Counted from the first letter of the stretch, positions 23,875 to 63,009 are shown. The stretch: 64,000 nucleotides of DNA from Candidatus Thorarchaeota archaeon (GCA_011364985.1 RDOC01000003.1:158061-222060), one strand, 5' to 3'. The notes: a model not told the origin generated them from the letters alone. A program made the numbers and translations.

Positions 23875-26592
23875 TTGCAATTGTTTGGGCCATGGAAAGG
23901 AGAAGAATTAGTAGGAGCTCTAGAAGTGCTGGAGATTCCTGAAACATACATGTTGCAATCAGATTCGGGGAGTCAGCACCGTTCGTACGGCAAGTCATTC
24001 ATAAGTATTTTACGAGGAATGATTCTAGCCAAAACGCCTGTAGCTCTACGTCTTGAACGAACTCACGGGAAGACTCGAGTACTGCTCTTGACATGGGCAA
24101 GAAACCAAGAAGATCTGCAAAGGTTTCTGGACTCACTCTCCTCGAACTTAGTAGCTCATCTTCCCAAGTTCAAACTGAAGCGGCATGAGTTATTCCAAGG
24201 ATTTTCATCTCATCCAAACATCCAAGGCATTAATGCCTGTCTAGTGGGCGAGCCAGAAATCACAGAGGAAAAAGATGATTCGCCAAAACCAATGGATGTT
24301 GTTGGAGAGTGCATCCAGAACCTCTCAAATGCAATCCTTCAGGTCTTTGTCACTCCCACTAAAACCAATCGTGGCAAAGTGAGAGGTTTGGAACGCGCCT
24401 ATGAACGGGCGATGGAACAGTCACAGCAGGTAGTTTCCGCTGCCAGCATGTTCTCGCCAGACATTCAACAGTCCACCACACGGGTTAGTGCTAGTGCTTC
24501 ACGTGATGCTGAACGTCTTTCCAGACAGATCAAACGAATGAGTAGCCGTTACTTGGGAAAAGTGTCAGTTGTTGCGACCTGCTGGCACCAAGATAAGAGA
24601 GTTGCAGAAACAGAGGCCCGACGACTGCTGTCCGTTCTCATGAGTAGCGTCACCCCTGCTGACAAGGAAGAAGACCTTCGAGTTGAGATTAAGAAGAAGG
24701 CCAAAGACTTTGAGAAGGCTCTGGCTGGAAGACCCATTGGGAAAGAAACCATTCTTGTCCCTGAGGAGATAGTCAACTACTTCACACTCCCACGTGTAGA
24801 CATGGGAATCAAGGTGTCACGTCGAGAGGACTTCTCTACGGCGGGTATTGACCTAACGAAACTTGAGAACAATGAGAATGTGCCTCAGCCCAGTATCAGC
24901 CCGGCCCCTATGTCAGACTGGAAACCTAGGACAGCAACAAGATGGTCACCCGCAGAGGATGATACCATATGGAGATTCCCCCTTGAGAAGCTCCTTCTTC
25001 TTGGCTATGCAATTCGGAACAATGCACCTCAGAAACAGGAGCCCTATGGTCTTGTTCCACGAATTCTGGGCTCCCACGTCGGCATCTATGGGAACACCGG
25101 CTACGGCAAGACCACCACCGCCGTCACGCTCATTGCTCAGGCCTACAGGAACAATGTCATCCCAATCATTCTCACTCCCGGAAACGTTGACGACTGGCGA
25201 GTCCTTAGGGACCTCTACGATGAGTTTCGTATCTTTACTGCCGGAAATCCCGATGTGGCACCCCTGCGATACAACATGTGGAATGTCCCGGACGGTGTCC
25301 CCATTGGCAAGTACATCGATAGGATGGTGGACGTCCACACCGCTGCTCTCCCAACAGACGGCGTCATCTCCATGCACTTTGACGATGTCTTCAACACTAT
25401 GTACGAGAACTGTGGCTGGTCACGCATGGGGAACGTCCGAGGTCGTCCCATCCTGCTCTCGGACCTGTATGAGGCCGTACATGAGGTTGCGGACACTCAC
25501 CTGAAGTACGGCGATGAGATGCGCAGGGACTTTCATGGTGCACTCGATGCGCGCCTTCGCAGCATTCTCAGAAACGACATTCTGGTGGACATGTTCAACA
25601 CGCCCAGTGGGCTCACGATTCCCGAACTCCTCTCTCACCCGACCATCATTGAGACCCGTGACCTCTCTCCTGAAGACCGGGCGTTGCTTACTGGCGCCCT
25701 TACGGTGGGCATCAGCGAGTACCTCATTGCGAATCCGCGGAAGACGGTCAGTCATCTACTGGTCATTGAGGAGGCCCATCACTTCCTCAAGCGTCCACGA
25801 ATGGCTGGAGGCTACGCTGAGCCCACCTCCCAGCAGAAGGCCACGGAGAACATCACTGAGATGCTACGGACTCAACGCGGGACCGGTCTAGGCCTTATGC
25901 TCATCGACCAACTTCCCAGCAGTCTTCCTCTGGACATTGTCAAGCTCCCCAGCAGTGTCATCATTCACACACTGACCGACGTGGAGGAGCGTACTCTGGT
26001 TGGCAGGCAAGCCCTGTGTAACGACGCGCAGATCGAGCACATTGGCGGCATGGGTATCGGGGAGATCGTGGCACGAGTGCAGACGCAGACCGTTCCGTCT
26101 AACGTGCAGGTGGTGCCGCTGGATTATGTACTCACGCAGCCTCTGCCCAAGCGCCCTTGGACCGATGCGATGATCAGGAGTGCGATGCGGCCGGTCTTCG
26201 AGGGCAATCCTCACCTCGACGAGAGTCATCCGCTCTCTGGGGAGCTTCGGGGCGCCCTGAAGGGCATCTCGGCGCCGGCACGTATGGAACTTCGCCCCGA
26301 GGCACAACTGGTCAGCCTGTCCAGCAGGCAGGAAACCGACATCTCGGAGATCGTCAACACGCCCGCCTTTGTCGATGCTTACTTGGACCGTGTGGGGCTG
26401 GCGTCGCAGGGTGACCCCGCTGCTGTGGCTCGGTTGCTGACGGTGGTGGCCGGGAAGTTCTGCTCGGATGGGGTGCAGGTGGTTCCCTTCGCTGAGCGCC
26501 TTCTTCTGCATGCGGCAGGGATGCTTCAGGAGCCTCGAGAGACCGCCGTTCTTGGGGGGATTCTTCTGGCAATCAGGGGTACTAGTGTGTGA
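23875..26592 (+). CDS. HerA/VirB4/FtsK-like P-loop ATPase
   Basis: Walker A GNTGYGKT, Walker B LLVIEEAH, R..GLGLMLIDQLPS. Confidence 0.85.
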   Translation: MQLFGPWKGEELVGALEVLEIPETYMLQSDSGSQHRSYGKSFISILRGMILAKTPVALRLERTHGKTRVLLLTWARNQEDLQRFLDSLSSNLVAHLPKFKLKRHELFQGFSSHPNIQGINACLVGEPEITEEKDDSPKPMDVVGECIQNLSNAILQVFVTPTKTNRGKVRGLERAYERAMEQSQQVVSAASMFSPDIQQSTTRVSASASRDAERLSRQIKRMSSRYLGKVSVVATCWHQDKRVAETEARRLLSVLMSSVTPADKEEDLRVEIKKKAKDFEKALAGRPIGKETILVPEEIVNYFTLPRVDMGIKVSRREDFSTAGIDLTKLENNENVPQPSISPAPMSDWKPRTATRWSPAEDDTIWRFPLEKLLLLGYAIRNNAPQKQEPYGLVPRILGSHVGIYGNTGYGKTTTAVTLIAQAYRNNVIPIILTPGNVDDWRVLRDLYDEFRIFTAGNPDVAPLRYNMWNVPDGVPIGKYIDRMVDVHTAALPTDGVISMHFDDVFNTMYENCGWSRMGNVRGRPILLSDLYEAVHEVADTHLKYGDEMRRDFHGALDARLRSILRNDILVDMFNTPSGLTIPELLSHPTIIETRDLSPEDRALLTGALTVGISEYLIANPRKTVSHLLVIEEAHHFLKRPRMAGGYAEPTSQQKATENITEMLRTQRGTGLGLMLIDQLPSSLPLDIVKLPSSVIIHTLTDVEERTLVGRQALCNDAQIEHIGGMGIGEIVARVQTQTVPSNVQVVPLDYVLTQPLPKRPWTDAMIRSAMRPVFEGNPHLDESHPLSGELRGALKGISAPARMELRPEAQLVSLSSRQETDISEIVNTPAFVDAYLDRVGLASQGDPAAVARLLTVVAGKFCSDGVQVVPFAERLLLHAAGMLQEPRETAVLGGILLAIRGTSV

Positions 26593-28653
26593 GTGGTTCG
26601 CATGGCGGGACGTATCGAGAGCAGGGGCCGCGGTGAGAGGTCTGAGATACGGGATGCTGGCAGTGATGTGCGGGAGCTTCGGGAGGTACGGGACGCGGAG
26701 GAGGTTCAGGTTGAAACCGGGGAGGATGAGCATGCCGTTGAGCGGATTGAGCGGAGCGATGCGCAGGAACCCGTGGAGCGGAGGGTCGTTGATGCGATTC
26801 AGGAACTGGATGCTGAGGAAGGGCGTGAGAGCGACACGCGGAAACGGATTGCTGGTGCCCTCAGGGAGCTGGAGGAGATAGAGGGCGGGTCCGTCAGGGA
26901 CAGGGTCGAGCGGGCAGTTGCGGAGGTCAAGGAGGAAGTTGAGAAACCGGACATTCCTCCTGAGAAGGACTTTGAGGATGCAAGAGAGGTAGTAGAGAGA
27001 GCCAAGGAGGTTGAAGAGGCAAACGTAGAGGCCAAGGAGGAAGAGAGTAGGGTATCAGAGTCGTCACCCAGAGAGGCGTTTGAGGATTCATCAGAACAAC
27101 GGGCGGAGGGGGAGAAGCGCAAGGGGCTTGAGAGGGTTCCCGATGAACAGGTGCGCGAAACCTTCTCGGAGTTGGAATCGAAGGAGGGTGAACCACGAAG
27201 CTGGGCTTCGGAGGAGATTGCAGAAGGGCTGAAGCGGCTCGCTCCGGAAGACGCAGAGGTTTCTCGGGTCTATTGTGCAGACATTCGAGAGGGATTGGGC
27301 CTGACGCCGGAGGAGGTCGAGTCCTTCACGAATGAGTTTCAGCAGGCGAAGGAGGCACTTGAGGCAGAGGGGGAGGTTCGATGTGGCATGGTGGATGAGA
27401 AGGTCTACATTTGGAGGCCAGACTTGGACCCAACCCAGCTTGAGAATGCTTATGGCAATCTCTACTACTATTTCCGTGATGAAGAAGCATTTGAGAAGTA
27501 TATCTGGGATATTGCGTGTCCTCTGGGAATTGAGGGGGATGATGAGAAGCAGAACATTGAACATCTTCAGAAGCTAGCCTCTCAGATGTTGACTGAGCCT
27601 ACGAGTGAATACTGCGTGAATCCTAGACTCAATCGTATTCGTGGAGATCATGTCCATTTTTTTAATAATTTGTCTGGAAAGACACTGTCTGAGTTGGAAG
27701 GTGAGATTTCAAAGATCACTAAGAAGGGTGGTCGAGGAGGAATTAGGAATCCGAGGTTTCCTGAAGGCGAGGAGTTGGAGATTGCATTGGCTCGCCTTAC
27801 TGCTGTCGCTGTCAGCGATTGCCACCTGAAAGCAAATGGAACCCTTGAGTATGCTGAGGGGGAGATAAGTCGGATACGTATAGTTGAGAGAGATCTTCAG
27901 GTGTTTGGAGATATTAGAATGAATCCAAAGTTAAAAGAGAGAGAGAATTTCTATGAAGTCTTCTTGCCTTCTCCATTCGGAATCGTGTTATTACACCTAG
28001 GAATACCTTCAGGTGACCGGACGGTCCAGAATCCAGGGCTTTATCCGGAACTTAGGGAGTTCTCAGTAAAGGCCCAGTGTGGATTTATTGAGAATCTAAT
28101 CCCTCAAGATGGAACCATTAGCAGAAAGAATGTTCAGTGGACTCACTCAAACGCCCTACATGCAGGCGATAAAACAGAAATCTATGGAATCGAGCCCAAA
28201 GTGGGGCGCAAAGAAATCAATTTGATAATTGAAGAGGGGAAGAGAGAGAAACACAGTTGGGTACTTAATTACGGAAAACTGGAAGAGCTTAGACAATCTG
28301 ATTCAGATAATCTTAGACATATTGCAGACAGTCTATGGAACATTGTTTATGAAAATCCCAACCGACTAGTTGAGGATGAGATAAGAATTGTTAGAAAGTT
28401 GGGTGTAAATTATAATGCAAAACCATACACAATCCGATATCATGAGAGGAGTGGGCGGGTTTCTGTTGCTTGGACAGCAGAACCAGAGAGTGTTCTTGAA
28501 TCAATCAAGCTAGCGATGATTGCCCCTTCTAATGATGTAATTAAAAGACAGATCATGAGGGATTTGATTGCAAATCATCCTAAATACATGAGAAGAGCAC
28601 TTCGGCAATTCGAAAAGAACGGTATAGAGGTTTATCAGTGGTGGACATCATGA
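26593..28653 (+). CDS. Acidic E/R-rich N-terminus fused to a two-motif LAGLIDADG-like endonuclease domain
   Basis: LARLTAVAVSDCHL and FIENLIPQDGTI at the spacing of DOD-type LAGLIDADG motifs; abuts the ATPase stop (alternative start ATG 26602). Confidence 0.65.
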   Translation: MVRMAGRIESRGRGERSEIRDAGSDVRELREVRDAEEVQVETGEDEHAVERIERSDAQEPVERRVVDAIQELDAEEGRESDTRKRIAGALRELEEIEGGSVRDRVERAVAEVKEEVEKPDIPPEKDFEDAREVVERAKEVEEANVEAKEEESRVSESSPREAFEDSSEQRAEGEKRKGLERVPDEQVRETFSELESKEGEPRSWASEEIAEGLKRLAPEDAEVSRVYCADIREGLGLTPEEVESFTNEFQQAKEALEAEGEVRCGMVDEKVYIWRPDLDPTQLENAYGNLYYYFRDEEAFEKYIWDIACPLGIEGDDEKQNIEHLQKLASQMLTEPTSEYCVNPRLNRIRGDHVHFFNNLSGKTLSELEGEISKITKKGGRGGIRNPRFPEGEELEIALARLTAVAVSDCHLKANGTLEYAEGEISRIRIVERDLQVFGDIRMNPKLKERENFYEVFLPSPFGIVLLHLGIPSGDRTVQNPGLYPELREFSVKAQCGFIENLIPQDGTISRKNVQWTHSNALHAGDKTEIYGIEPKVGRKEINLIIEEGKREKHSWVLNYGKLEELRQSDSDNLRHIADSLWNIVYENPNRLVEDEIRIVRKLGVNYNAKPYTIRYHERSGRVSVAWTAEPESVLESIKLAMIAPSNDVIKRQIMRDLIANHPKYMRRALRQFEKNGIEVYQWWTS

Positions 28654-51795: not shown

Positions 51796-52872
51796 TCAAA
51801 AGCTCGCCTTGACGATTTTGACGTATTCTTTTCGTTCATAATCCTTGGTTCCAACCAACATCTGATAGAAGGGCTTATCTCCTCTGATACTGGGTTCCAC
51901 AAGTTGGAGAACCCCACAGACCTCGACTATATCTCCCGTTCGCAATAATCCACGAAAGGTGCCTTCGTAAATCATAATGCGATCTACAACGATATCTTTG
52001 GTCAGAGGAATGGATTCAGATTCAGCAATGTATATTGAAGGCGAGAATAGACCGTATGTGTCATCCTTTATCTCCATAACCACACGAATCGGCATTGATG
52101 TCTTAGCATGATATGACTCACTTCCATGGCGAATAGGATATTCATCTGGTAAGAGCACTGGCATTATGCCAATGGGTCGATCATAGCAATGTAGAAGCTT
52201 ACGCCTAGCGAACAGAAGTCGTACGTCCGAAGGAGTGAGATCAGGTATCTTTGAAAACAGCCGGGACATTGCCATTGCCCATTCATTAATCTGCCGCATC
52301 TTTATGTGGTCGTTGTTTCTGGCCATTTCGAAATAGCTCTTCTCAAGTCTCCATGATGCATCAAGTCCGTAGACATTCATATTGACGTCAGACTGATTGG
52401 TGCTATGAGCTTTCCAGAGAATGCTTCCGGCCACTCCTAAATCATCAAAGGAAATGTCTAGAGTCTCGTGAAGGGTTTCAGCCATCTTCAGGGCATCAGC
52501 CTCCAGCTTATCACTTGGACCTTTGTCAATTATCTCTTGAAGGCGTTTCTCTGGAGAGAAGTATCTCGTTACTTCTCGGTGAGGCACCTCTGCAAGTGTG
52601 GTTCGGAAGTGGGTATCTTTGCGAAGATATTCCGTCGGCACAGATCGCATACCTCGGACAACTGATTCGGAGCCGCCGAAGAACAATCTCCGATACTTCG
52701 TACCACCGGCTTTCCACCGACCAAGAGGATCGGGGACGTACTTCAGAAATGACAAGAATCGGTTTTGGGGTTGGATGTGGCCCAAGGCAACATAGACTCT
52801 CCCCTCCTTGTCGTGAAATATATCACGATCCCTTGCATAGGTCGGTGGGTCTATCTCTGCGGGACTATCCAA
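51796..52872 (-). CDS. Predicted archaeal nucleotidyltransferase
   Basis: FLKYVP, LGVAGSIL..SDVNMNVYG. Confidence 0.7.
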   Translation of the reverse strand: MDSPAEIDPPTYARDRDIFHDKEGRVYVALGHIQPQNRFLSFLKYVPDPLGRWKAGGTKYRRLFFGGSESVVRGMRSVPTEYLRKDTHFRTTLAEVPHREVTRYFSPEKRLQEIIDKGPSDKLEADALKMAETLHETLDISFDDLGVAGSILWKAHSTNQSDVNMNVYGLDASWRLEKSYFEMARNNDHIKMRQINEWAMAMSRLFSKIPDLTPSDVRLLFARRKLLHCYDRPIGIMPVLLPDEYPIRHGSESYHAKTSMPIRVVMEIKDDTYGLFSPSIYIAESESIPLTKDIVVDRIMIYEGTFRGLLRTGDIVEVCGVLQLVEPSIRGDKPFYQMLVGTKDYERKEYVKIVKASF

Positions 52873-52948: not shown

Positions 52949-54154
52949 GTGCGCATCCTCCATCTCTGCGACAGCATGAACCCAAGTGGGCTTGGAGGCT
53001 ATGAATCTTATTTGCACTATCTCTCTGCACAGCTTGCTTCTGCGGACCATGAATCAATCATTGTTACACAGTCACCAGCTAGGAATTCCCCAAGAGAATT
53101 ACAACACGAGCATTATATGTTGTATCATCTAAGGGGCAATCTCTTGGAGGCGAGAAAATGGGAGTACTATGCAATGCCAGAAGATGCGCGTAGTGTCGCA
53201 GCTAGCAAGCTTTTCAAATTGAATGATGTGGCGAAGAATGTTCTTCTTTTGACGAAGGAACTCAAGAAGTTGATTGAGAACCACAGGCCTGATATCATAC
53301 ATGCGCATAGCACCTACGTTGTACTCAATCGCGTTCTAACCAGACTGACAAGAGATTCTGACCTAGATGTCCCTTCCATTGTGACTATTCACGGATTGCC
53401 AAAACCACTTATCCTTCCAAGTGGAAAAAAGACAACAGACTATAACGAGCTAGTATCAGCGTTTCCCTTTAAATTGGCACTTGGAGTAAGCGAAGCCGTG
53501 TCACAGGCTCTGAGAAAGCATCTTGAGCCATCGAAACTCGAAAGCCTTGTCCGTACCGAGTACCTTGGAGTGAATATGTCTCTGTTCAAACCTCGTCCGA
53601 ATCTTGAGAAGAGATGGGATGTAGCTTTCATGGGCAGACTGGAAGAGATGAAATCTGTGGACCTCTTTCCAAAGATGCTTGCTCTCCTTAAGTCAACACA
53701 CCCTGATTTGAAGATGATGCTGACAGGGGATGGATCTCTCAAGACACGCTTACTGGAGGATATTGAACAACTGGGAGTGGAATCACTTGTGGAATACCGA
53801 GGTGTTGTGGAGACGGAAAGAGTTCCTGAGCTGATCAATCAGAGCCGCGTTTTCCTCTATCCCTCTAGAAGAGAACCCTTTGGTCTTTCCATAGTAGAGA
53901 GCATGGCTTGTGGAGTACCAGTAGTTACAACGGGTGTCTTTGGCCCCAGTGAGATTGTAAGGCATGAGTGGGATGGATACATTGTGCCAGTAGATGATGT
54001 TCAGGCTCTTGCAGAAGCAATAGAAACGCTTCTATCGGATGCCAGTCTCAGATTGCGACTCGGCAGGAATGCTGTGAACACTGTGAAGAAACGGTTTGAT
54101 ATCCGACTACATGCCAAACGCCTGATGAGTATATACAGAGAAGTTCTTGCCTAG
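52949..54154 (+). CDS. GT4 family glycosyltransferase
   Basis: FMGRLEEMK, EPFGLSIVESMACGVPVV. Confidence 0.9.
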   Translation: MRILHLCDSMNPSGLGGYESYLHYLSAQLASADHESIIVTQSPARNSPRELQHEHYMLYHLRGNLLEARKWEYYAMPEDARSVAASKLFKLNDVAKNVLLLTKELKKLIENHRPDIIHAHSTYVVLNRVLTRLTRDSDLDVPSIVTIHGLPKPLILPSGKKTTDYNELVSAFPFKLALGVSEAVSQALRKHLEPSKLESLVRTEYLGVNMSLFKPRPNLEKRWDVAFMGRLEEMKSVDLFPKMLALLKSTHPDLKMMLTGDGSLKTRLLEDIEQLGVESLVEYRGVVETERVPELINQSRVFLYPSRREPFGLSIVESMACGVPVVTTGVFGPSEIVRHEWDGYIVPVDDVQALAEAIETLLSDASLRLRLGRNAVNTVKKRFDIRLHAKRLMSIYREVLA

Positions 54155-54196: not shown

Positions 54197-55015
54197 CTAT
54201 TTGGCCACAATTCTTGTGGCTGCAACTGGCTCTCCTTTAAGGAAAGATTTGAGGTTACCGTACTCCATCATTGAGAGAAGTCCGACCTCTAAGCCCTGCT
54301 CAATCTCTGGCAGTGCAGGAACCAAGGACTCCAACTTCCCTTTCATCTTCCCACTTGCATCTGCTGTCTCTGATTTGCCCATGCGTTTGAGTGTTGCATC
54401 TAGCTGATTCAGATTCACCATATCGATGAGTGGAGCCTCAGGGTCAAGCTTCGGGTCAGCTTCGTAGATACCCGATACATCAGAAGCGAAGATGAGACGC
54501 TCTGCCCCAAGCTCCTTGGCAATGATGACAGCTAGTTGGTCACCGCTTCCAACACTCCATCCCATGATTGCATCGACAAGAATGTCGCCTCCCAACAAAG
54601 GCACCATTCCTACCGAGGCGAATCCCTTGAGAGAGTCAAGGAAGTAATTAGTCATCCTCATTTTCTCGGCAGTCACCATTGACGAGGGATACATCAGGCA
54701 CACAGGAATCCCAGCCTTTTGGAGCTCCTTGACTATTATATGACGAAGCGTCGCTACACTCTCCTGGGTTTCCGAGAGAGGCAGCAACTGCTCAGGGCCG
54801 AGGAATCCTTTGTGCAGATTGTACTTGAGAACCGGCGGGTGACCATAGGAACCGACACCATGCAGCAGAACCAGAGATTGAATCAGATCTTCGTCAAGGC
54901 ATTCCCTTATCTCTTGAGTGACCGAACTCAAAACCTTCTCTCTGTAGGTGTACGGTTTGGTCTTGTCAGTCAATAAGGAACCACCGAGCTTGATGATGGT
55001 CAGGTCCTTGGTCAT
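54197..55015 (-). CDS. ipk: Isopentenyl phosphate kinase
   Basis: IKLGGSLLTDK, HGVGSYGH, SGDQ, DASGKMKGK. Confidence 0.88.
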   Translation of the reverse strand: MTKDLTIIKLGGSLLTDKTKPYTYREKVLSSVTQEIRECLDEDLIQSLVLLHGVGSYGHPPVLKYNLHKGFLGPEQLLPLSETQESVATLRHIIVKELQKAGIPVCLMYPSSMVTAEKMRMTNYFLDSLKGFASVGMVPLLGGDILVDAIMGWSVGSGDQLAVIIAKELGAERLIFASDVSGIYEADPKLDPEAPLIDMVNLNQLDATLKRMGKSETADASGKMKGKLESLVPALPEIEQGLEVGLLSMMEYGNLKSFLKGEPVAATRIVAK

Positions 55016-55034
55016 TTTACATCACTACACGAAC

Positions 55035-55856
55035 TTAGAAGAGAGTGAACAGGGGATAGGGCCAGAATAGGCCGATATATGGCAGTATCAGACACATCAC
55101 AATGGCTGCAATAGTGATTGTGATGTTATCTAGTCCTTTTGGAGTCAGCGCTTCCACGATTGTAGCGACAATGCTAACAACAATGATTGGAAGAAGCAGG
55201 TCAATCAGTGCAAAGGAAGACACTTCGATGGAAAAGAGAAATACCAAGATTATACTGGATAAGACAGATCCAATGAACATGCCAATGGTTCCGGCTAACG
55301 TCTTCTCAGCTCCGCCTATTCCGAATTTCTTCTCGCCTCCGTATTTGCGTCCAATGACATCTGCAAGACCATCACCACCAGCAAGACAACCAAAGACTAT
55401 GAGCGCAAGTGGTGTAGCATTTGCAAGAGTTGCATCAGCAGGCACATAGAACCAGAGAACAGCTACAACCATCATCAGGAATGCGTAGTATAGCGTTCCT
55501 CCAAGAAGTTCTTTGGGATCTCCGGACCTAGACATTGAACTTACAAAGTCTTCATTGACCATCTTTCCAGTCCCAATTGCCACAAACAGGATTACAAACA
55601 ATAGCGGAACTATTAATGCTAGCCATCGACTGAAGACACTCCCTGAGAAAAGCACCCAAGTGACAACCCAGAGAGGAGCAGCAAAGGTATGAATCACCTT
55701 TCTTGTGACGGTTGTCGATAGCTTCCCACTCTTTTCGATTGCAGCATTGATTTGAACGAGCATCAATATCAAAATGAACGAAACAATGAATGCAATGAAG
55801 TCCCAGACTAACTCAAGGCCAGGAAATCCTAACAATTCAAGTAAATTGAACACCAT
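55035..55856 (-). CDS. CTP-dependent prenol (phytol/farnesol/dolichol) kinase-like membrane protein
   Basis: TRKVIH, SRSGDPKELLGGTLYY, GDGLADVIGRKYG, KTLAG, DNITI. Confidence 0.85.
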   Translation of the reverse strand: MVFNLLELLGFPGLELVWDFIAFIVSFILILMLVQINAAIEKSGKLSTTVTRKVIHTFAAPLWVVTWVLFSGSVFSRWLALIVPLLFVILFVAIGTGKMVNEDFVSSMSRSGDPKELLGGTLYYAFLMMVVAVLWFYVPADATLANATPLALIVFGCLAGGDGLADVIGRKYGGEKKFGIGGAEKTLAGTIGMFIGSVLSSIILVFLFSIEVSSFALIDLLLPIIVVSIVATIVEALTPKGLDNITITIAAIVMCLILPYIGLFWPYPLFTLF

Positions 55857-55976
55857 GTTTCCAATTTCCTCCCAGATAATTGGTCTTCAGGGGCAGCCAC
55901 TGCCCAACCTAAAAATCTGCCGAGAGAGCTTGAAACGAAAGAGAGAGGACTGAATGATCCTCTCTGTCTGTTATGT

Positions 55977-56600
55977 TCACAGTGTCGTGGGAAAGACCTT
56001 GATCATAAATGCATACCAGATTCGGCCAAACACTGGTGTAAGGAAGGCAACGGTTAGCATCCCCTGAGTCAGAAGAGGTAGTGTCACAAACCCAATGACT
56101 GCCATCGTTGCAGCGCCCTCAATTGTGAGCCCAATTACTGTGACTAGGAGAAGGGTGAAAGTCATTCCAACTATCGACATGATAGACAACTTGACCAATG
56201 ACCGACCGTTGTCTAATTCATAAGAAGCCAAGCCAACCACAAGACCTGTAAATCCATATGCGAATGCGGGCAATGTCATTGTGATCATAGTTCCACTCAA
56301 TAAGGTACCTGCCAGCAGCTCGCCAAGATAGCCAGTAAGTAGGCCAGCAATAGGACCACGAATAGCACCTACAAGGGCAATCACTGCAAGAGCTGGAAGA
56401 AGACCAAGTGTGAATAGATCGACCATGATGTACGGCCAAGAAATCCACTTCAGAACAATGTAGATGACGGCCCCAAACAAAGCTGTAAGCAGCGTTCCTA
56501 AGGCGACTTTCGGTTCTTGAACTTGCAGTAGCTCCAATACTGTCTTTTCATCACTACCCTCTTTCCGTGCTGTTGATTCTTCATTCATGTTACTCATCAC
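55977..56600 (-). CDS. ECF transporter S-component-like membrane protein
   Basis: About six TM; GAIRGPIAGLLTGYLG signature. Confidence 0.7.
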   Translation of the reverse strand: MMSNMNEESTARKEGSDEKTVLELLQVQEPKVALGTLLTALFGAVIYIVLKWISWPYIMVDLFTLGLLPALAVIALVGAIRGPIAGLLTGYLGELLAGTLLSGTMITMTLPAFAYGFTGLVVGLASYELDNGRSLVKLSIMSIVGMTFTLLLVTVIGLTIEGAATMAVIGFVTLPLLTQGMLTVAFLTPVFGRIWYAFMIKVFPTTL

Positions 56601-56601
56601 C

Positions 56602-58233
56602 TCACATTATTACCAATTGGTAGATTCCCGGCTGTAAAGTGAGAGTGTAGTCAGATCCGCTCTGTTGGAGTGCGGCGAGAACACTCCCTCTGGAGTATGC
56701 TGTTGGTTGAGAAGCAAAATTGCTGAAGGTCAGAGACGCAGCTTGGTCAACTTGGATGTTTAGGATGAATCCGTCTTTTTCCGAGTCCCATTGTGCCTGG
56801 TATACCCAGATGTTTCTGTCGTCGGCCGCACTTATGTAAGGATAGTTCCAGAACTCTGCAGCCCGAGCCTCAGTGACATCCTTTATTGTAACAGGAAGAT
56901 TTCCCCATAGATATCCGAACCCAGCAATAGATTGGAGGAACCCATCGAGAGAGAGCGTGTCGAAATGCATTTCCCTTCCGTTGGCGGACCAGACCTTGTT
57001 GTAGGAATTGAAGAAGAAATTGGCCAATCGGTTCCGGGTCACATAGTCCTTTTGTTGATTCGCAATATGCAGGGCGAAGAGAGTTGCAAGAATATCATAG
57101 GTGGCAAATCCGTCTGGATTGTTGTAACTATCCATGATGAAGGCCTTGTCATCAGACAAGTTCTTCATGAAGTACTCAATGAATCTTGGATAGGTCTCTG
57201 CTGTCTGTTCGGGCTGTAGACTCTCTAGAAATGCCAGCGCCCATGCGTTTCCATACCCGGCAATTTTGGGCGTCGGGTTTTCGGTCCATGGAGAGAGTGC
57301 CAAACCTGGATATGCCTGTGGAAGTCGCTCACTGGCATAGTAAAATCCTGTAGGTTCGTAAAGATAGTATCCATCAGCAAAGAAGCCCTCTGTATTCACC
57401 ATATCATTGTTGACGAAGTTGAGACCATAGTCCCAGATAGGCAAGAAACTCGTCCCATACAGACCATCGTAGAGTTTGGTACAGACCATGGGCACCGAGT
57501 TACACTGCACAAAGACCACATACGGCTCGCAGGGGATTATTCCGGTACCCCAAATACCTCCCTCAGCAGGATGACCAAAGCCGTCCGTAGTTAATGAGTT
57601 GTTCCAATCAAGAATATAGTGCGTAATCTCGTCGGTCATTTCATTTGTGTTGAAGCTTCTCTCATACAGGGACATCATCAAGGCATAATGAGCAGTCCAC
57701 ATGATGTTCGCTGGGCCGCGAAAGCGTCCAACGTAGAGATCGCTCGTATCCGTCTGATTGGGCCAATAGTAGTTGACATAGTTGTATTCGGGATGCGACC
57801 ACTCCTTGTATTCTATACTATTGTTTCCCCATTCAGCCTCAGTGGTATTCATCTTCTTTATGAGATCATAGAGAAAGTCACGATAATGACTCGTACGATA
57901 CCCTGAAGTGATTTCAAACAGGAAAGAAACAGAATATGCCATGAAGGCAAGAACATAGTGATGCAGTCCATGCTGTTCTTCAGCATACCAGCCATTCCAT
58001 TCTCCATAGCCCTGATATTCATCGTTCACGATTGTATCCAAGTAATTGAAGAGAGCAAGCATCTCATGGTCCACAGAGTCGTAGTCAGCAAAGTTGAAGG
58101 TCGTTCCATTCACCGTCTGAACGCCTGTTTGAGTAGCAGGACCGGGGATGTTGCCAAAGGTCATTCCCGCCAGTATAATGCTGATTGTGAGTGCGGCCAA
58201 GAAGAACTTGTTCTTCTTTAAAATCTCGCTCAT
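56602..58233 (-). CDS. Linalool dehydratase/isomerase-like secreted or anchored protein
   Basis: YVLAFMAY, NIMWTAHY, GIIPCEPYVVFVQCNS; N-terminal signal/TM. Confidence 0.8.
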   Translation of the reverse strand: MSEILKKNKFFLAALTISIILAGMTFGNIPGPATQTGVQTVNGTTFNFADYDSVDHEMLALFNYLDTIVNDEYQGYGEWNGWYAEEQHGLHHYVLAFMAYSVSFLFEITSGYRTSHYRDFLYDLIKKMNTTEAEWGNNSIEYKEWSHPEYNYVNYYWPNQTDTSDLYVGRFRGPANIMWTAHYALMMSLYERSFNTNEMTDEITHYILDWNNSLTTDGFGHPAEGGIWGTGIIPCEPYVVFVQCNSVPMVCTKLYDGLYGTSFLPIWDYGLNFVNNDMVNTEGFFADGYYLYEPTGFYYASERLPQAYPGLALSPWTENPTPKIAGYGNAWALAFLESLQPEQTAETYPRFIEYFMKNLSDDKAFIMDSYNNPDGFATYDILATLFALHIANQQKDYVTRNRLANFFFNSYNKVWSANGREMHFDTLSLDGFLQSIAGFGYLWGNLPVTIKDVTEARAAEFWNYPYISAADDRNIWVYQAQWDSEKDGFILNIQVDQAASLTFSNFASQPTAYSRGSVLAALQQSGSDYTLTLQPGIYQLVIM

Positions 58234-58391
58234 AGAAGACGCCTCAAGTAGCTTTGCGTATGCATCAGAAGCCAGAAATCACATGCATTTCAGCAATATA
58301 TTTTCCACTATTGTAATGAATATTAGATTCACTTTTGATATATCGTCTAGTGAGATGCCTTCAAATTACGATAAAACAAGAAAAATAGTGA

Positions 58392-58409
58392 GTGGGGGAT
58401 TACCCCCAC
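58392..58409 (-). terminator. Hairpin + T-tract after peroxiredoxin
   Basis: GTGGGGG-atta-CCCCCAC. Confidence 0.5.
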
Positions 58410-58414
58410 ATTGG

Positions 58415-59062
58415 CTATAGCTTCTTTTTACAAAACCACCAATCAGTGCAGTCGAATCCTTCCTTGAGGCGCTTCTCTGCACCTTCCTTGGTCTTCGGAG
58501 GAGGAACAATCACCTTGTCACCTGGATTCCAGTTAGCAGGAGTAGCAACATTATGCTTATCAGATGTCTGAAACGCGTCAACGACCCTTAGGATTTCAGC
58601 CATGTTACGTCCGTTGCTGAGTGGATAGTAGATCAATGCCCGAAGTTTGAATTCAGGGTCGATGAAGAATACTGCTCGAACCGCAGCTGTTCCGCTTTGA
58701 GCTGGGTGTATCATTCCGTACTTCTTTGCAACGTTCATGCTAAGGTCCTCGATGATCGGGAACGGAATCTCCACGCCAAACTTCTCCTTAATTGTGCTAA
58801 TCCATGAAATATGCGAATAGATGCTATCAATGCTAAGCCCTAGAAGCTTAACTCCTCGCTTCTGGAGTTCTGGATAAATCTCTGTGAATCCAATAAATTC
58901 AGTGGTGCACACAGGTGTGAAGTCGGCAGGATGGCTGAATAGGATGACCCAGCTGCCTTTTGCCCAGTCACTGAACTTTATTGGACCATCGGTGGTCACT
59001 GCCTCAAAATCAGGAGCTTCCTCTCCAATTAGGAGCATCCTCGTTTCTTCATATTCTTCCAT
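58415..59062 (-). CDS. Peroxiredoxin (Prx6/archaeal type)
   Basis: FSHPADFTPVCTTE, GRN, TPANW, CTDWWFC. Confidence 0.93.
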   Translation of the reverse strand: MEEYEETRMLLIGEEAPDFEAVTTDGPIKFSDWAKGSWVILFSHPADFTPVCTTEFIGFTEIYPELQKRGVKLLGLSIDSIYSHISWISTIKEKFGVEIPFPIIEDLSMNVAKKYGMIHPAQSGTAAVRAVFFIDPEFKLRALIYYPLSNGRNMAEILRVVDAFQTSDKHNVATPANWNPGDKVIVPPPKTKEGAEKRLKEGFDCTDWWFCKKKL

Positions 59063-59095
59063 TCGAACTATCTCCGTGAATTAGTGGATGTAAAC

Positions 59096-59160
59096 AATAA
59101 TCATTATTATTTAAGTATTATTATCTGTAAAAATTTTACCCTTGATAATAATATTTATTA
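59096..59160. promoter_or_regulatory. AT-rich divergent promoter with Fur/PerR-box-like inverted repeats
   Basis: AATAAT-C-ATTATT (59096-59108) and GATAATAATATTTATTA. Confidence 0.55.
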
Positions 59161-59185
59161 GAAGATTTTATGGTTCCAACATGTC

Positions 59186-59614
59186 ATGACCGCTGCAAAA
59201 CCTGATATAACACTAGAATTGCACAGTAGAGGGTATCGTGCAACACCCCAAAGACTCTCTATCTATGATGCAATATGGAATGCCGGTGACCATCCAACAG
59301 TCGCTCAGATCCACGAATGCGCAGTCAAGAGAGACCCCACAATTAGCCTTGCAACGGTCTACAAGACGCTCCAACTTTTAACAAATATTGGCCTTATACG
59401 AGAGATGGCTTCTAGGGATGACTCCATGCGTTATGATTCAGTAGTGGATAGTCATATCAATTTGGTATGTAGTAAGTGTGGAGAGGTAGAGGATTTTGAG
59501 TGCGATAAGATAGAAAGCATTGTAGCTGCAATAAGCTCCCAAACCAACTTTCTCGTAAGCAGTCAAAGCTTTGAGGTCTATGGTGTATGTTCTAAATGTA
59601 GGGCCTCGACTTAA
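59186..59614 (+). CDS. Fur/PerR family transcriptional regulator
   Basis: RATPQR, HPT, SLATVYKTL, H.NLVCSKCG, YGVCSKC. Confidence 0.9.
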   Translation: MTAAKPDITLELHSRGYRATPQRLSIYDAIWNAGDHPTVAQIHECAVKRDPTISLATVYKTLQLLTNIGLIREMASRDDSMRYDSVVDSHINLVCSKCGEVEDFECDKIESIVAAISSQTNFLVSSQSFEVYGVCSKCRAST

Positions 59615-59625
59615 CCATAACACTT

Positions 59626-60237
59626 CTATGAACCAGTAGGCAATGCTTTCAGTTCAGCTGCATGAATGACTCTTGCAGAAACAGGAACCAGCAGTAGTAC
59701 AGTCGGGATTCCTTGAGTCAACATAGGGAGAAGGACAAAGCCTATGCCAACAAGGACTGAGTATCCCTCTACTACAATTCCCACAACAACCAGCAGCAGA
59801 GCAGTGAGTACGAGACCCACAAGGGAGAGTATTGAGAGCTTGGCTAAAGAGCGTCCTGTCGCAAAGTTGTAAGAGGACAAGCCTACGACTAAGCCCATGA
59901 GTCCGTAGGCGATACCTTGCAGTGTGAAGCTGACTATTGTTGAGTGAAGAAGAAGGTCTCCAACTGCTACGCCAATATAACCTGCCAGAAAACCTGAGAA
60001 AGGACCTCGGAAAGCACCAACCAAGGCAATGATTACAATTGTGGGAAGGATTCCAAATTTGAACAGTGATATTGCCAAGAATGGCATGGACAAAGTCGAG
60101 AACGCCATAAAGAGGACAGCGCCAATCAGACCTATCAGAATAGTCCAGAATGAACTCGTGATGTCTTCCAGACGAAACAAGACTCTGAAAGGCTTTGATT
60201 GCTCTTGTGTGCCCATTTGATTGTCCTCTGTCATCAT
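59626..60237 (-). CDS. ECF transporter S-component-like membrane protein (paralog)
   Basis: GAFRGPFSGFLAGYIG; GRSLAKLS shared with 55977-56600. Confidence 0.7.
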   Translation of the reverse strand: MMTEDNQMGTQEQSKPFRVLFRLEDITSSFWTILIGLIGAVLFMAFSTLSMPFLAISLFKFGILPTIVIIALVGAFRGPFSGFLAGYIGVAVGDLLLHSTIVSFTLQGIAYGLMGLVVGLSSYNFATGRSLAKLSILSLVGLVLTALLLVVVGIVVEGYSVLVGIGFVLLPMLTQGIPTVLLLVPVSARVIHAAELKALPTGS

Positions 60238-60245
60238 TCTTCACC

Positions 60246-61901
60246 TCACTTTATCACCAGATTGTAGACTCCCGGGTCTAGAGTAAGCCTAAAGCCGTCA
60301 CCAAGAGAAACAAGTTCTCCAAGGGCATATCCACTGGAATACGCTGTTGGAGTGTGCACGAAGTTGCTGAAGGTCAAGGTAGCGGTCGCGTCAACGCGAA
60401 TGTTCAAAATGAATGCATCTTTGAGTGAATCCCATACAGCCTGATAGACCCAGATGTTGGCGTCATCTGCTTTGGATATATAGGGATAGTTCCAGAAGTC
60501 AGGGGACCTTGCATCAGCAAGATCTTTGATAGAAACCGGACTCTTAGCCCAAATCCAGCCAAAGGCCATTGCGGATTGCAGAAAGGGCTCTAAGGACATA
60601 GTGTCAAAATGCATCGTTCGCCCATCTTCTGACCATACCTGATTGAAGGCTGGCCAGAGAAAATTAAGGATTCTATCTCGTGTCACGAAGTCGCCTCGCT
60701 GTTTGGCAAGATGAAGAGTAAACAGGGTGCCAAGTATGTCAAAGGTACCAAAGGTTGATGGATGATTGTAGGAGTCAATGATGTACATTCGATCTCCGGA
60801 GAGTTCTCTCCCGTAGACATCAATATAGGCTGGATAGAGAGGAATTGTCTTTCCCCCCCAAGTGTACTCAAGAAATGCAAGTGCCCATCCATTGCAGTAG
60901 GAAGACACCTGACGTCTTCCATCATTTGTTATTCTATCTAGTGATGGCCCAGGGAAAGTGTAGTCAGGCCCAGTGGGAGACTCAACGAACCCCGTTGGTT
61001 TCATCATATAGTATCCATCTGTGAAAAGCCCATAGTTGTCTGTCATATTTGCTTCAATAAAGTCAAGACCATACTCCCACATTCCTCCCTCCATATAGCT
61101 TGTATTGTACATGTTATCATAGAGCTCAGTTGTGACAATGGGAATGCTGTTACATTGAACAAAGACTATGTAAGGTTCACAGGGGATGAGCCCAACGCCC
61201 CAGATTCCACCCTCCTTAGGATTACCGAATCCATCTGTTGTTAACGAGTTATTCCAGTCAGCCACAAACCAGCCGAGTTCATCCCTCATCTCGCCTGTGT
61301 TGAAATTACGCTCGAATAGCGACATCATGAGTGCATAATGCCCAGTCCACATAATGTTCGCTGGTCCCCGAAAGCCCCCAACATAGAGATCATCAGAATC
61401 CGGTGTTGTAGTATTGGGCCACCAGTAGTCCAAAAAGTTGTACGAGGGATTCGACCACTCCCTATACTCGATACTGTTGTTGCACCATTCCGCCTCTGTC
61501 GTATTCATCTTTCTAATCAAGTCTCGAGAGAAGTTGCGGTAATAGTCCGTGCGATAACCAAGTGTTGATTCAAACATCATGGACACCGAATATTGCATGA
61601 AGGCCAATACATAATGCTGTAAGCCAAAGAAATCATCTGCATACCATCCATCCCACGAGCCATACGGCTGAAAATCTGAACTGACTAATGTATTCAGATA
61701 GTTGAAGATAGCCAACTGCAAATGGTCAATTGCCATGTAGTCGGCAAATCTGAATGTGACCCCGTCCACTACTTGAACGCCAACAGTAATTTGAGGGGCT
61801 GGCAGATTGCCAAAGGACAACCCTGCGAATACAATCAATCCAATCAGGGTGATAGTGAAGAACTTGTTCGACATGACTGTTGTTTTCATATGCATCCCCA
61901 T
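60246..61901 (-). CDS. Linalool dehydratase/isomerase-like protein (paralog)
   Basis: YVLAFMQY, NIMWTGHY, LIPCEPYIVFVQCNS; N-terminal signal/TM. Confidence 0.8.
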   Translation of the reverse strand: MGMHMKTTVMSNKFFTITLIGLIVFAGLSFGNLPAPQITVGVQVVDGVTFRFADYMAIDHLQLAIFNYLNTLVSSDFQPYGSWDGWYADDFFGLQHYVLAFMQYSVSMMFESTLGYRTDYYRNFSRDLIRKMNTTEAEWCNNSIEYREWSNPSYNFLDYWWPNTTTPDSDDLYVGGFRGPANIMWTGHYALMMSLFERNFNTGEMRDELGWFVADWNNSLTTDGFGNPKEGGIWGVGLIPCEPYIVFVQCNSIPIVTTELYDNMYNTSYMEGGMWEYGLDFIEANMTDNYGLFTDGYYMMKPTGFVESPTGPDYTFPGPSLDRITNDGRRQVSSYCNGWALAFLEYTWGGKTIPLYPAYIDVYGRELSGDRMYIIDSYNHPSTFGTFDILGTLFTLHLAKQRGDFVTRDRILNFLWPAFNQVWSEDGRTMHFDTMSLEPFLQSAMAFGWIWAKSPVSIKDLADARSPDFWNYPYISKADDANIWVYQAVWDSLKDAFILNIRVDATATLTFSNFVHTPTAYSSGYALGELVSLGDGFRLTLDPGVYNLVIK

Positions 61902-62286: not shown

Positions 62287-63009
62287 ATGTCGCTATTTGA
62301 AGTTGTGTTTAGAGCATTCTATGATAATCCTTTCAGCAAGGTCACAGAGAGAAATCCCTCGGTGCAGCTGTATCAATGGTGCAACGATCAACACGATATT
62401 ATTGAGCTGGTATTACAGAAACCGGAAGACTATGATCAAGTGCGCAAGGAGTTCGAAAAAGCGGTTGAGATTGTTGATGAGATAGATAATGGATCTAACA
62501 TACATGTCATCACTAGAATGTGTGCATGTGATGGGCCCGGCACAGTGAATAGCTATCTTAGTGATCCTAGCCTTCTGGTGATACCGCCAGTTGCCTATGA
62601 AAAGGGCTGGGAGTACTTCAGACTGATTGCCTTCAGGCATGAAGGAATTACAAGACTGCTTACCAAGTTACGAGAGGCTGGTTTCAGAGTTGAGATTCTT
62701 AGAAAGACTCCATTTGACGGATACATAGCGAGTTCATTGACTCTATCAACAGACACCCTATTCTCAGGGCTAACAGAGAAACAGATGGATGCACTTCTCA
62801 CAGCCTATGCACAGGGCTACTTCAGGTTTCCAAGAGGGTCTGACCTTCAGACCATTGCATCCAAGGAGAAGATAGGGAGAACTACCTTTTTGGAGCATCT
62901 TAAGAAAGCTGAGAACAAAATTATCACGGCACTAATTCCACACATTCAGCTATTCAGGAAGATACCTCAGGAACGAAAAGACAGCATGCGTCTTATTCAC
63001 AGTGCCTGA
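62287..63009 (+). CDS. Bacterio-opsin-activator-type (HTH_10) transcriptional regulator
   Basis: LTEKQ..L..AYAQGYF.FPR..L..IA..TTFLEHLKKAE. Confidence 0.88.
   Translation: MSLFEVVFRAFYDNPFSKVTERNPSVQLYQWCNDQHDIIELVLQKPEDYDQVRKEFEKAVEIVDEIDNGSNIHVITRMCACDGPGTVNSYLSDPSLLVIPPVAYEKGWEYFRLIAFRHEGITRLLTKLREAGFRVEILRKTPFDGYIASSLTLSTDTLFSGLTEKQMDALLTAYAQGYFRFPRGSDLQTIASKEKIGRTTFLEHLKKAENKIITALIPHIQLFRKIPQERKDSMRLIHSA

Follow-up and report, generated by a model that had tools for sequence, protein, structure and literature searches.

A window of 64,000 nucleotides, taken from contig 16 of a Candidatus Thorarchaeota archaeon genome (GCA_011364985.1, RDOC01000003.1:158061-222060), was analysed around a minus-strand gene group. 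The genome comprises 1.7 Mb, is 74% complete and has closest relatives that carry the label Thorarchaeota. The group contains two genes for homologues of linalool dehydratase/isomerase (LDI; the enzyme LinD), each followed by a gene for a protein resembling the S component of energy-coupling factor (ECF) transporters, and a pair of kinase genes annotated here as a prenol-kinase-like membrane protein and an isopentenyl phosphate kinase (IPK) paralogue (Table 1). The six minus-strand open reading frames agreed exactly with the coordinates of a preliminary description prepared from the DNA sequence. The peroxiredoxin and the FUR-family regulator between the two enzyme/partner pairs had been overlooked.

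Table 1. Genes and features of the locus in window coordinates, with the associated transporter cassette located outside the window
Feature	Position	Strand	Remarks
LinD-like enzyme 1 (P0001, 551 aa)	60246-61901	minus	Pfam Ldi 55.1 bits
ECF S-component-like partner 1 (P0002, 203 aa)	59626-60237	minus	starts 8 nt past the end of the enzyme 1 gene
FUR-family regulator	59186-59614	plus	Pfam FUR E 9e-29; between the two enzyme/partner pairs
1-Cys peroxiredoxin	58415-59062	minus	Pfam AhpC-TSA and 1-cysPrx_C; NCBIfam PRK13189 317 bits; between the two pairs
LinD-like enzyme 2 (P0004, 543 aa)	56602-58233	minus	Pfam Ldi 49.6 bits
S-component-like partner 2 (P0005, 207 aa)	55977-56600	minus	starts 1 nt past the end of the enzyme 2 gene
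Terminator-like hairpin with U-rich tail	55934-55972	minus	directly 3' of the partner 2 stop codon
Polyprenol/phytol/dolichol-kinase-like membrane protein (P0006, 273 aa)	55035-55856	minus	about 8 hydrophobic segments; first gene of the kinase pair
Accessory IPK paralogue (P0007, 272 aa)	54197-55015	minus	19 nt after P0006
Five-gene ABC cassette	G000 contig 18, 36462-39877 (locus L041:5462-8877)		outside the window; three small membrane-anchored proteins, FtsX-type permease, ABC ATPase

The LinD-like enzyme and its partner

The enzymes belong to the LinD family and share its (alpha/alpha)6 fold. Profile hidden Markov models (HMM), fold and catalytic residues all agreed on this homology, which the preliminary description had proposed. 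Both copies exceeded the curated cut-off of 26.1 bits of Pfam Ldi (PF18566), with good alignment only in the centre, at approximately profile positions 139-205. In a sequence search of the PDB with P0001, LinD was the sole strong match (E 3e-7), and the LinD motifs NIMYKGH and CEPDNYFVQCNS lined up with the archaeal motifs. Both copies carried NIMWT[GA]H and CEPY[IV]VFVQCNS, so that the two motifs quoted earlier were recovered in each protein. The equivalents of LinD Met125, His129, Cys171 and Cys180 were M184, H188, C241 and C250 in P0001. Across 32 relatives, including bacterial proteins with 19-25% identity, N182, I183, M184, C241 and C250 were invariant and H188 was nearly so (at least 90%).

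An AlphaFold (AF2) model of enzyme 1, built from 32 relatives, reached a pLDDT of 92. In this model, a membrane helix at the N terminus precedes the (alpha/alpha)6 barrel, and the C terminus, from near residue 475, forms an additional beta-sandwich of some 75 residues. Ranks 1 to 27 of the Foldseek search were all LinD chains, with E values of 4e-13 to 3e-12 and template modelling (TM) scores of 0.76-0.81 by target; other six-hairpin folds followed from E 3.8e-4. The LinD-like fold, sought by both HMM and structure search, was thus present with LinD as the best match. One N-terminal hydrophobic helix was found in each copy at residues 8-26, in line with the anchor helix described earlier. The claim of many N-glycosylation sequons proved weak because the counts were close to expectation: 7 and 6 N-x-S/T sites were observed against 4.3 and 4.9 expected from composition, and enrichment was rejected as not significant. 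The two enzymes shared 57% identity and are deep paralogues whose nearest relatives differ.

The archaeal proteins resemble LinD/Ldi of Castellaniella defragrans (PF18566; PDB 5G1U, 5HLR, 5I3T) in the barrel, in the retained Met and His of NIMxxxH and both Cys of CEP...VQCNS, in the lack of a cofactor-binding domain and, on the archaeal side by prediction, in a non-cytoplasmic location. They differ in the added anchor helix, extra N-terminal strands and C-terminal beta-sandwich, in the archaeal host and in an obligate S-like membrane partner. An LDI-like domain that works at the membrane has its closest precedent in Lis of Thauera linaloolentis, which is reductant-dependent (PMC4791888). Lis has four fused helices at its N terminus and a predicted orientation towards the cytoplasm, whereas the archaeal enzyme has one helix and a separate six-helix partner and is predicted to face outwards.

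The partner proteins were related to ECF S components by marginal sequence scores and by fold. P0002 scored 27.1 bits against Pfam ECF-ribofla_trS (PF07155), just above the cut-off of 26.7 bits, and NCBIfam S-component models gave 14-22 bits for the partners against cut-offs of 60-99. The best family matches were riboflavin and folate S components. P0005 was 42% identical to P0002 and aligned over its full length with 26 partners. Partner sequences for these comparisons were taken from the loci, and a homologue search returned 24 matches, limited by low-complexity words. A structure model built from 27 partners (pLDDT 84) supported the S-component fold proposed in the preliminary description, the top 27 PDB fold matches all being ECF S components. 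The partners are like RibU, ThiT, FolT and BioY (PF07155 and relatives) in their six-helix fold and size and in the occurrence of EcfA/A'/T modules elsewhere in the genome. They are unlike them in their marginal scores, in the constant pairing with an enzyme gene, in outward loops predicted to be covered by the enzyme and in the absence of a vitamin context. At least two EcfA/A'/T modules and one NikR-linked module were present elsewhere in the genome, none of them near an enzyme/partner pair; use of a shared ECF energiser by the partner is therefore possible.

The enzyme and its partner were strictly paired and had diversified together. Loci from this and other genomes were compared, 26 in total, covering Thorarchaeota as well as contigs labelled Hodarchaeales (L010) and Helarchaeota (L012). 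A partner gene followed every complete LDI gene (29 of 29) at a distance of -3 to +16 nt. The pairing was kept in L010, in L012 and in a relative with 37% identity, and the surrounding genes differed in all three. Distance matrices of enzymes and partners were correlated with a Mantel r of 0.91 overall, where the best of 2000 permutations reached 0.39, and of 0.46 within Thorarchaeota, where the best of 2000 reached 0.40. In genomes with several pairs, partners clustered with those of the orthologous enzyme subfamily and not with the genomic neighbour. One locus held four LDI gene copies, three of them followed by a partner and the fourth running off the end of the locus.

Complex prediction supports docking of the enzyme onto the partner. 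P0001 and P0002 obtained a score of 0.72, compared with 0.00 for the best of three controls. Of 80 solved complexes, 58 attain this mark, as do 2 of 110 mismatched pairs; these counts apply only roughly here because our own alignments were used. The model runs shared at least 76% of contacts, with a partner pLDDT of at least 82. The modelled interface comprised residues 17-34 of the anchor helix and loops 365-388 and 406-437 on the enzyme side, and loops 47-63, 90-107 and 153-168 on the partner side.

The distribution of the enzyme was patchy. It was present in 49 of 301 sampled genomes of the phylum, in 42 of 76 genomes of its own family, in 2 of 3 and 4 of 21 genomes of two other families and in none of the remaining families. 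Even within the genus of the window, only 6 of 13 genomes held it, which identifies the enzyme/partner pair as an accessory cassette. Distant bacterial homologues had no partner and were located near alcohol and aldehyde dehydrogenases. The Helarchaeota-labelled copy (L012:70-5053) adjoined an aldehyde:ferredoxin oxidoreductase and two Zn-dependent alcohol dehydrogenases. This neighbourhood echoes Castellaniella, where geraniol and geranial dehydrogenases are encoded beside ldi, and hints that the Helarchaeota-labelled copy serves catabolism.

Association with a MacB/FtsX-type ABC cassette

The enzyme/partner pair was associated with genes of an ATP-binding cassette (ABC) transporter. In genome G037, the LDI pair was divergently oriented to a cassette encoding an FtsX-type permease, an ABC ATPase and three small proteins with membrane anchors. 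In a genome from a different family, enzyme, partner, a small two-helix protein, permease and ATPase were encoded in this order on one strand. The two permeases were 39% identical over the full length. A comparison of two 156-aa proteins encoded beside the FtsX gene revealed no similarity; the true counterpart was the 137-aa two-helix protein. The genome under study contained the whole cassette on another contig (Table 1), with a 59% identical FtsX-type permease (G000:C18:37964-39184) and small proteins of 136, 159 and 137 aa that had no Pfam matches.

Within the own family, 26 of the 43 genomes with LDI had an orthologue of the FtsX permease, compared with 2 of the 34 without (odds ratio 24, Fisher p 3e-7, kinship ignored), and this contrast recurred inside four genera. 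No orthologue was detected in 207 sampled genomes of 28 other families, and in the 301-genome sample the permease was confined to two of the three enzyme-bearing families. The cassette adjoined the LDI pair in eight genomes of four genera and two families. Its FtsX-type permease with a MacB-like outward domain, its single ATPase and its small membrane-anchored proteins resemble the MacB, LolCDE and FtsEX systems, from which it differs in being archaeal, associated with a LinD-like enzyme and, in this genome, located on another contig. MacB/FtsX-type transporters act on substrates at the outward face of the membrane, which fits a hydrophobic, membrane-partitioned substrate of the enzyme.

The kinase pair and its linkage to the enzyme

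P0007, a protein of the amino-acid-kinase fold, was affiliated with the archaeal IPKs. It reached 169.3 bits against NCBIfam IPPK_Arch (NF040647; cut-off 120) and aligned with IPKs of the PDB at E 4e-32. Lys9, His59 and Asp159 were conserved in both IPK clades and in 15 of 15 P0007 orthologues. The preliminary description was correct on family membership, as judged from the equivalog HMM and the catalytic residues, and incorrect in taking P0007 for the IPK of the pathway, P0007 being an accessory paralogue. A second IPK was located on contig 15 (112462-113250; locus L017:1495-2472, minus strand), adjoining a glmS-like gene. It scored 190 bits to IPPK_Arch, was 28% identical to P0007 and is probably the enzyme of the mevalonate pathway. 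IPKs of this second type (24-32% identical to P0007) were present in 55 of 62 relatives, including all four IPK-bearing ones without an IPK of the P0007 type. That type (52-81% identical) was present in 46 of the 62 and missing from 16.

The accessory clade differed from the universal clade in the alkyl pocket, at positions R1-R4 that were mapped by our own alignment to PDB entries and by a spacing that is presumably that of the Thermoplasma enzyme. Thr83 (14 of 15), Val155 (14 of 15) and Gly156 (13 of 15) of the accessory clade stood against Ile (15 of 16), Ile (16 of 16) and Leu (16 of 16) of the universal clade, and at one pocket position the accessory clade had the larger residue. Acceptance of longer or bulkier alkyl phosphates has been linked to smaller side chains at these pocket positions (PMC8500459). 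P0007 thus shares with the archaeal IPKs (PDB 7LNT, 3LL9, 3K4O, 3LKK; NF040647) an equivalog-level score and the catalytic Lys/His/Asp set, and differs from them as a second copy with a Thr/Val/Gly pocket.

P0006 was identified less clearly. Searches of the PDB by sequence and profile gave chance matches at most. PF01148 touched 5 of 20 P0006 orthologues weakly, with a best E value of 0.0023. Leads were provided by source annotations of relatives as dolichol kinase, phytol kinase or diacylglycerol/polyprenol kinase family, and by the nearest Atlas clusters in language-model features (cytidylyltransferase, diacylglycerol/polyprenol kinase and phytol kinase; 0.90-0.94 to P0006). The earlier designation as a prenol-kinase-like gene was borne out weakly, by annotation; the cut-off of a family HMM was not reached.

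Orthologues of P0006 and P0007 occurred together in 44 genomes and were adjacent in all but one of them, where they were 3.3 kb apart. P0006 orthologues were distributed like the P0007 type, and nearly every genome held a P0006 paralogue of 24-36% identity elsewhere. The shared distribution and the adjacency define P0006 and P0007 as an accessory, strictly paired two-kinase unit. A similar combination of a membrane prenol-kinase-like enzyme and a second kinase that could yield the diphosphate is found in plants, with the CTP-dependent prenol kinases VTE5 and FOLK and with VTE6; the second kinase here is an IPK paralogue and not a VTE6-type protein. Geranylgeraniol and geranylgeranyl-phosphate kinase activities have been reported for Sulfolobus acidocaldarius (Ohnuma 1996, as cited in PMC9385802). 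The cited papers assign no genes to these activities. A publication of 2024 still lists prenol-salvage genes as unidentified outside plants (PMC10849223).

The preliminary description had combined all of these genes in one salvage pathway, in which primary prenols, made by the surface enzyme from environmental isoprenoid alkenes or tertiary alcohols, are taken up through the S component and channelled by the kinases into lipid synthesis. We consider this unlikely. All four functions are plausible by family membership, the accessory IPK has a remodelled pocket, and the modules were adjacent in 18 genomes of six genera. Benthic archaea have also been reported to recycle isoprenoid chains of the sediment (Takano 2010, doi 10.1038/ngeo983, as cited in PMC6155224). 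The linkage to the kinases was inconsistent, however. The preliminary description had itself named a lack of conserved linkage among the outcomes that would refute the pathway, and this outcome was largely observed. Of the 42 sampled LDI-positive relatives in this family, 17 had the kinase pair close to the LDI pair, at a distance of about 3 kb or less, and 16 had it on a different contig. No kinase pair was found in the other nine, six of which are 90-97% complete. Presence of the kinase pair was also uncorrelated with the enzyme (odds ratio 1.3, p 0.75), so that the two units do not co-occur beyond chance: 34 of the 43 genomes with LDI had the kinase pair, as did 13-15 of the 20 LDI-negative ones. 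On the 62-genome tables, we rejected the idea that the distribution of the accessory IPK and P0006 follows that of the LDI pair.

Locus structure also speaks against a single pathway. L031 comes from a 97%-complete genome that lacks the kinase pair. It kept the synteny of the window except for the kinases and the second LDI copy, with translin, riboflavin kinase, PCMT, DUF371, Trm5, the 358-aa protein described below and a GT4 glycosyltransferase followed directly by partner and enzyme. G233 and G069 showed the order of GT4, peroxiredoxin, FUR, partner and enzyme as in the window, with the kinases on other contigs. In five genomes from two further Asgard families, all homologues of the kinases were on a different contig from the LDI pair or 130 kb or more away from it, and the two kinase homologues were not next to each other; likewise, the Hodarchaeales- and Helarchaeota-labelled contigs showed no linkage. 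In the window, the second enzyme/partner pair and the kinase pair appear to be separate transcription units. The hairpin behind partner 2 has a core stem of 9 bp (-14.4 kcal/mol, z -3.25, 1 of 200 shuffles as good), and the P0006 gene starts 120 nt past partner 2 with its own GGGAGG 8 nt before the ATG. Finally, long-chain prenols pass membranes without a transporter. The single four-step pathway was therefore not supported.

Proposed function of the two modules

The explanation we favour, and regard as moderately probable, is that two independent two-gene modules merely abut in this lineage. One would be a surface unit of LinD-like enzyme and S-like protein (module A, two copies), the other a unit of prenol-kinase-like protein and IPK paralogue (module B). 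In module A, the LinD-family enzyme would be tethered by its N-terminal helix to the outer face of the membrane, an outward orientation that is predicted, and docked via this helix and two surface loops onto the outward loops of its dedicated S-like protein. Since the Met/His/Cys/Cys set is kept, LinD-type chemistry on isoprenoid-like alcohols and dienes is most likely, judging from the sequences: hydration, dehydration or 1,3-isomerisation of allylic or tertiary alcohols and dienes of isoprenoid type at the membrane surface. The partner would hold or pass on the hydrophobic substrate or product, and such a hand-over is probable. In many genomes, including this one, module A may work with the MacB/FtsX-type cassette. 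For module B, analogy with VTE5/FOLK plus VTE6 of plants and with the two Sulfolobus kinase activities makes a twofold phosphorylation of a prenol most likely, from the alcohol to the monophosphate and on to the diphosphate. A hand-over from A to B could take place where both are present, with neither requiring the other. The adjacency of the modules in six genera leaves room for such an optional functional link.

Several observations weigh against this explanation. For the enzyme, the identity to LinD is only 18-19%, and the N-terminal region does not align with LinD in sequence, so that Tyr45 and Asp39 of the neighbouring subunit could not be mapped. For the partner, P0005 remained below the PF07155 cut-off with 23.7 bits, and the fold matches were moderate (TM 0.45-0.62 by target, E 0.02-0.36). 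P0006 had no Pfam match at E values up to 10 and no NCBIfam match, and the pocket comparison of the IPKs depends on the presumed mapping. No FtsX orthologue was detected in 17 of the 43 LDI-positive genomes, though many of these are incomplete. The co-occurrence tests of LDI with the kinases and with FtsX treat related genomes as independent. The adjacency of A and B in 18 genomes may also reflect a genuine, if optional, link in function.

A more ambitious version joins the parts into one archaeal surface machine that has not been described before. Enzyme, S-like dock and ABC cassette would capture isoprenoid alcohols or dienes of the phytol, isophytol or phytadiene type from the sediment, and in genomes with the kinase pair these would be converted to prenyl diphosphates and then membrane lipids. 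We rate this version as quite unlikely. If true, it would supply a missing mechanism for the isoprenoid recycling by benthic archaea.

Defence or detoxification is an improbable alternative. Here the enzyme would convert membrane-toxic terpene alcohols to less toxic hydrocarbons, a MacB-type pump would expel them, and the S-like protein would serve only as a dock. MacB-family pumps export from the outer leaflet or the periplasm, and the strong co-occurrence and adjacency of LDI and FtsX genes would fit such a system. The periplasmic location of Ldi has been argued to suit a defence role (PMC4791888). The dehydrogenases beside the distant bacterial homologues, and the two Zn-dependent alcohol dehydrogenases and aldehyde:ferredoxin oxidoreductase beside the Helarchaeota-labelled copy, point to catabolism instead. 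Up to four diverged copies per genome would also suit a range of substrates more than a single task of detoxification.

Remodelling of the cell's own lipids appears very improbable. The substrates would be chains of polyprenol, dolichol or unsaturated ether lipids in the outer leaflet, which the S-like protein presents to the enzyme and the ABC cassette extracts. A membrane-tethered enzyme predicted to sit on the outward loops of its partner agrees with this, as do the glycosyltransferase and STT3 genes nearby, and LolCDE-type transporters do extract lipid moieties from the outer leaflet. Yet the patchy occurrence even within the genus would be unexpected for a core lipid step, and we know of no Asgard archaeal lipid with the expected tertiary alcohol.

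That the partner is an ordinary vitamin S component on a shared ECF module, with the LinD-like protein as an unrelated neighbour or a processor of vitamin precursors, is hardly credible: the riboflavin and folate matches and the EcfA/A'/T modules of the genome would allow it, but the scores are marginal (27.1 and 23.7 bits) and far under the NCBIfam cut-offs, and strict pairing, co-diversification and predicted docking would be unexpected for an unrelated neighbour.

To our knowledge, work on LinD-family enzymes has been confined to a few terpene-degrading bacteria. A full-text literature search, judged by titles and abstracts, found no work on archaeal LinD homologues. The co-occurrence with the ABC cassette, the co-diversification test, the insertion/deletion locus L031 and the clade-specific IPK pocket are new here. 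An outward-facing LinD relative with an obligate transporter-like partner would represent a new enzyme architecture. It spans three Asgard lineages, reaches four copies in a genome and is linked to a MacB-type ABC system, and it would open a way to study how hydrophobic isoprenoids are handled by archaea living in sediment. The prenol-kinase-like gene and the accessory IPK are candidate genes for the archaeal geranylgeraniol and geranylgeranyl-phosphate kinase activities measured in 1996.

The FUR regulator and the 1-Cys peroxiredoxin (58415-59614) are wedged between the two pairs. The peroxiredoxin was syntenic in the relatives L003, L005 and L006, and the FUR regulator occupied the identical position in L005, L042 and L043. 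LinD and Lis require reduced cysteines; a link of the two genes to the enzyme on this account is only speculation. A gene for an HTH_10/HVO_A0563_N-type regulator (62287-63009, plus strand) is divergent from LinD-like gene 1. The same kind of HTH_10-type gene lies upstream of the LDI array in L005, and the regulator is a candidate for local control of the LinD-like genes. In L031, L042 and L043, which have the kinase pair at another place or not at all, the neighbourhood had a conserved edge at the GT4 glycosyltransferase gene, which in the window (52949-54154, plus strand) is convergent with the IPK paralogue. Every Thorarchaeota locus that was examined had a gene for a 358-aa protein (51796-52872 in the window, minus strand) with Trm5/TYW2 on one side and the kinase pair or the GT4 gene on the other. 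The protein had no match in Pfam, NCBIfam or the PDB; syntenic with Trm5, it is probably unrelated to the modules. The G+C content was 0.52-0.56 at window positions 24000-28000, compared with about 0.45 elsewhere.

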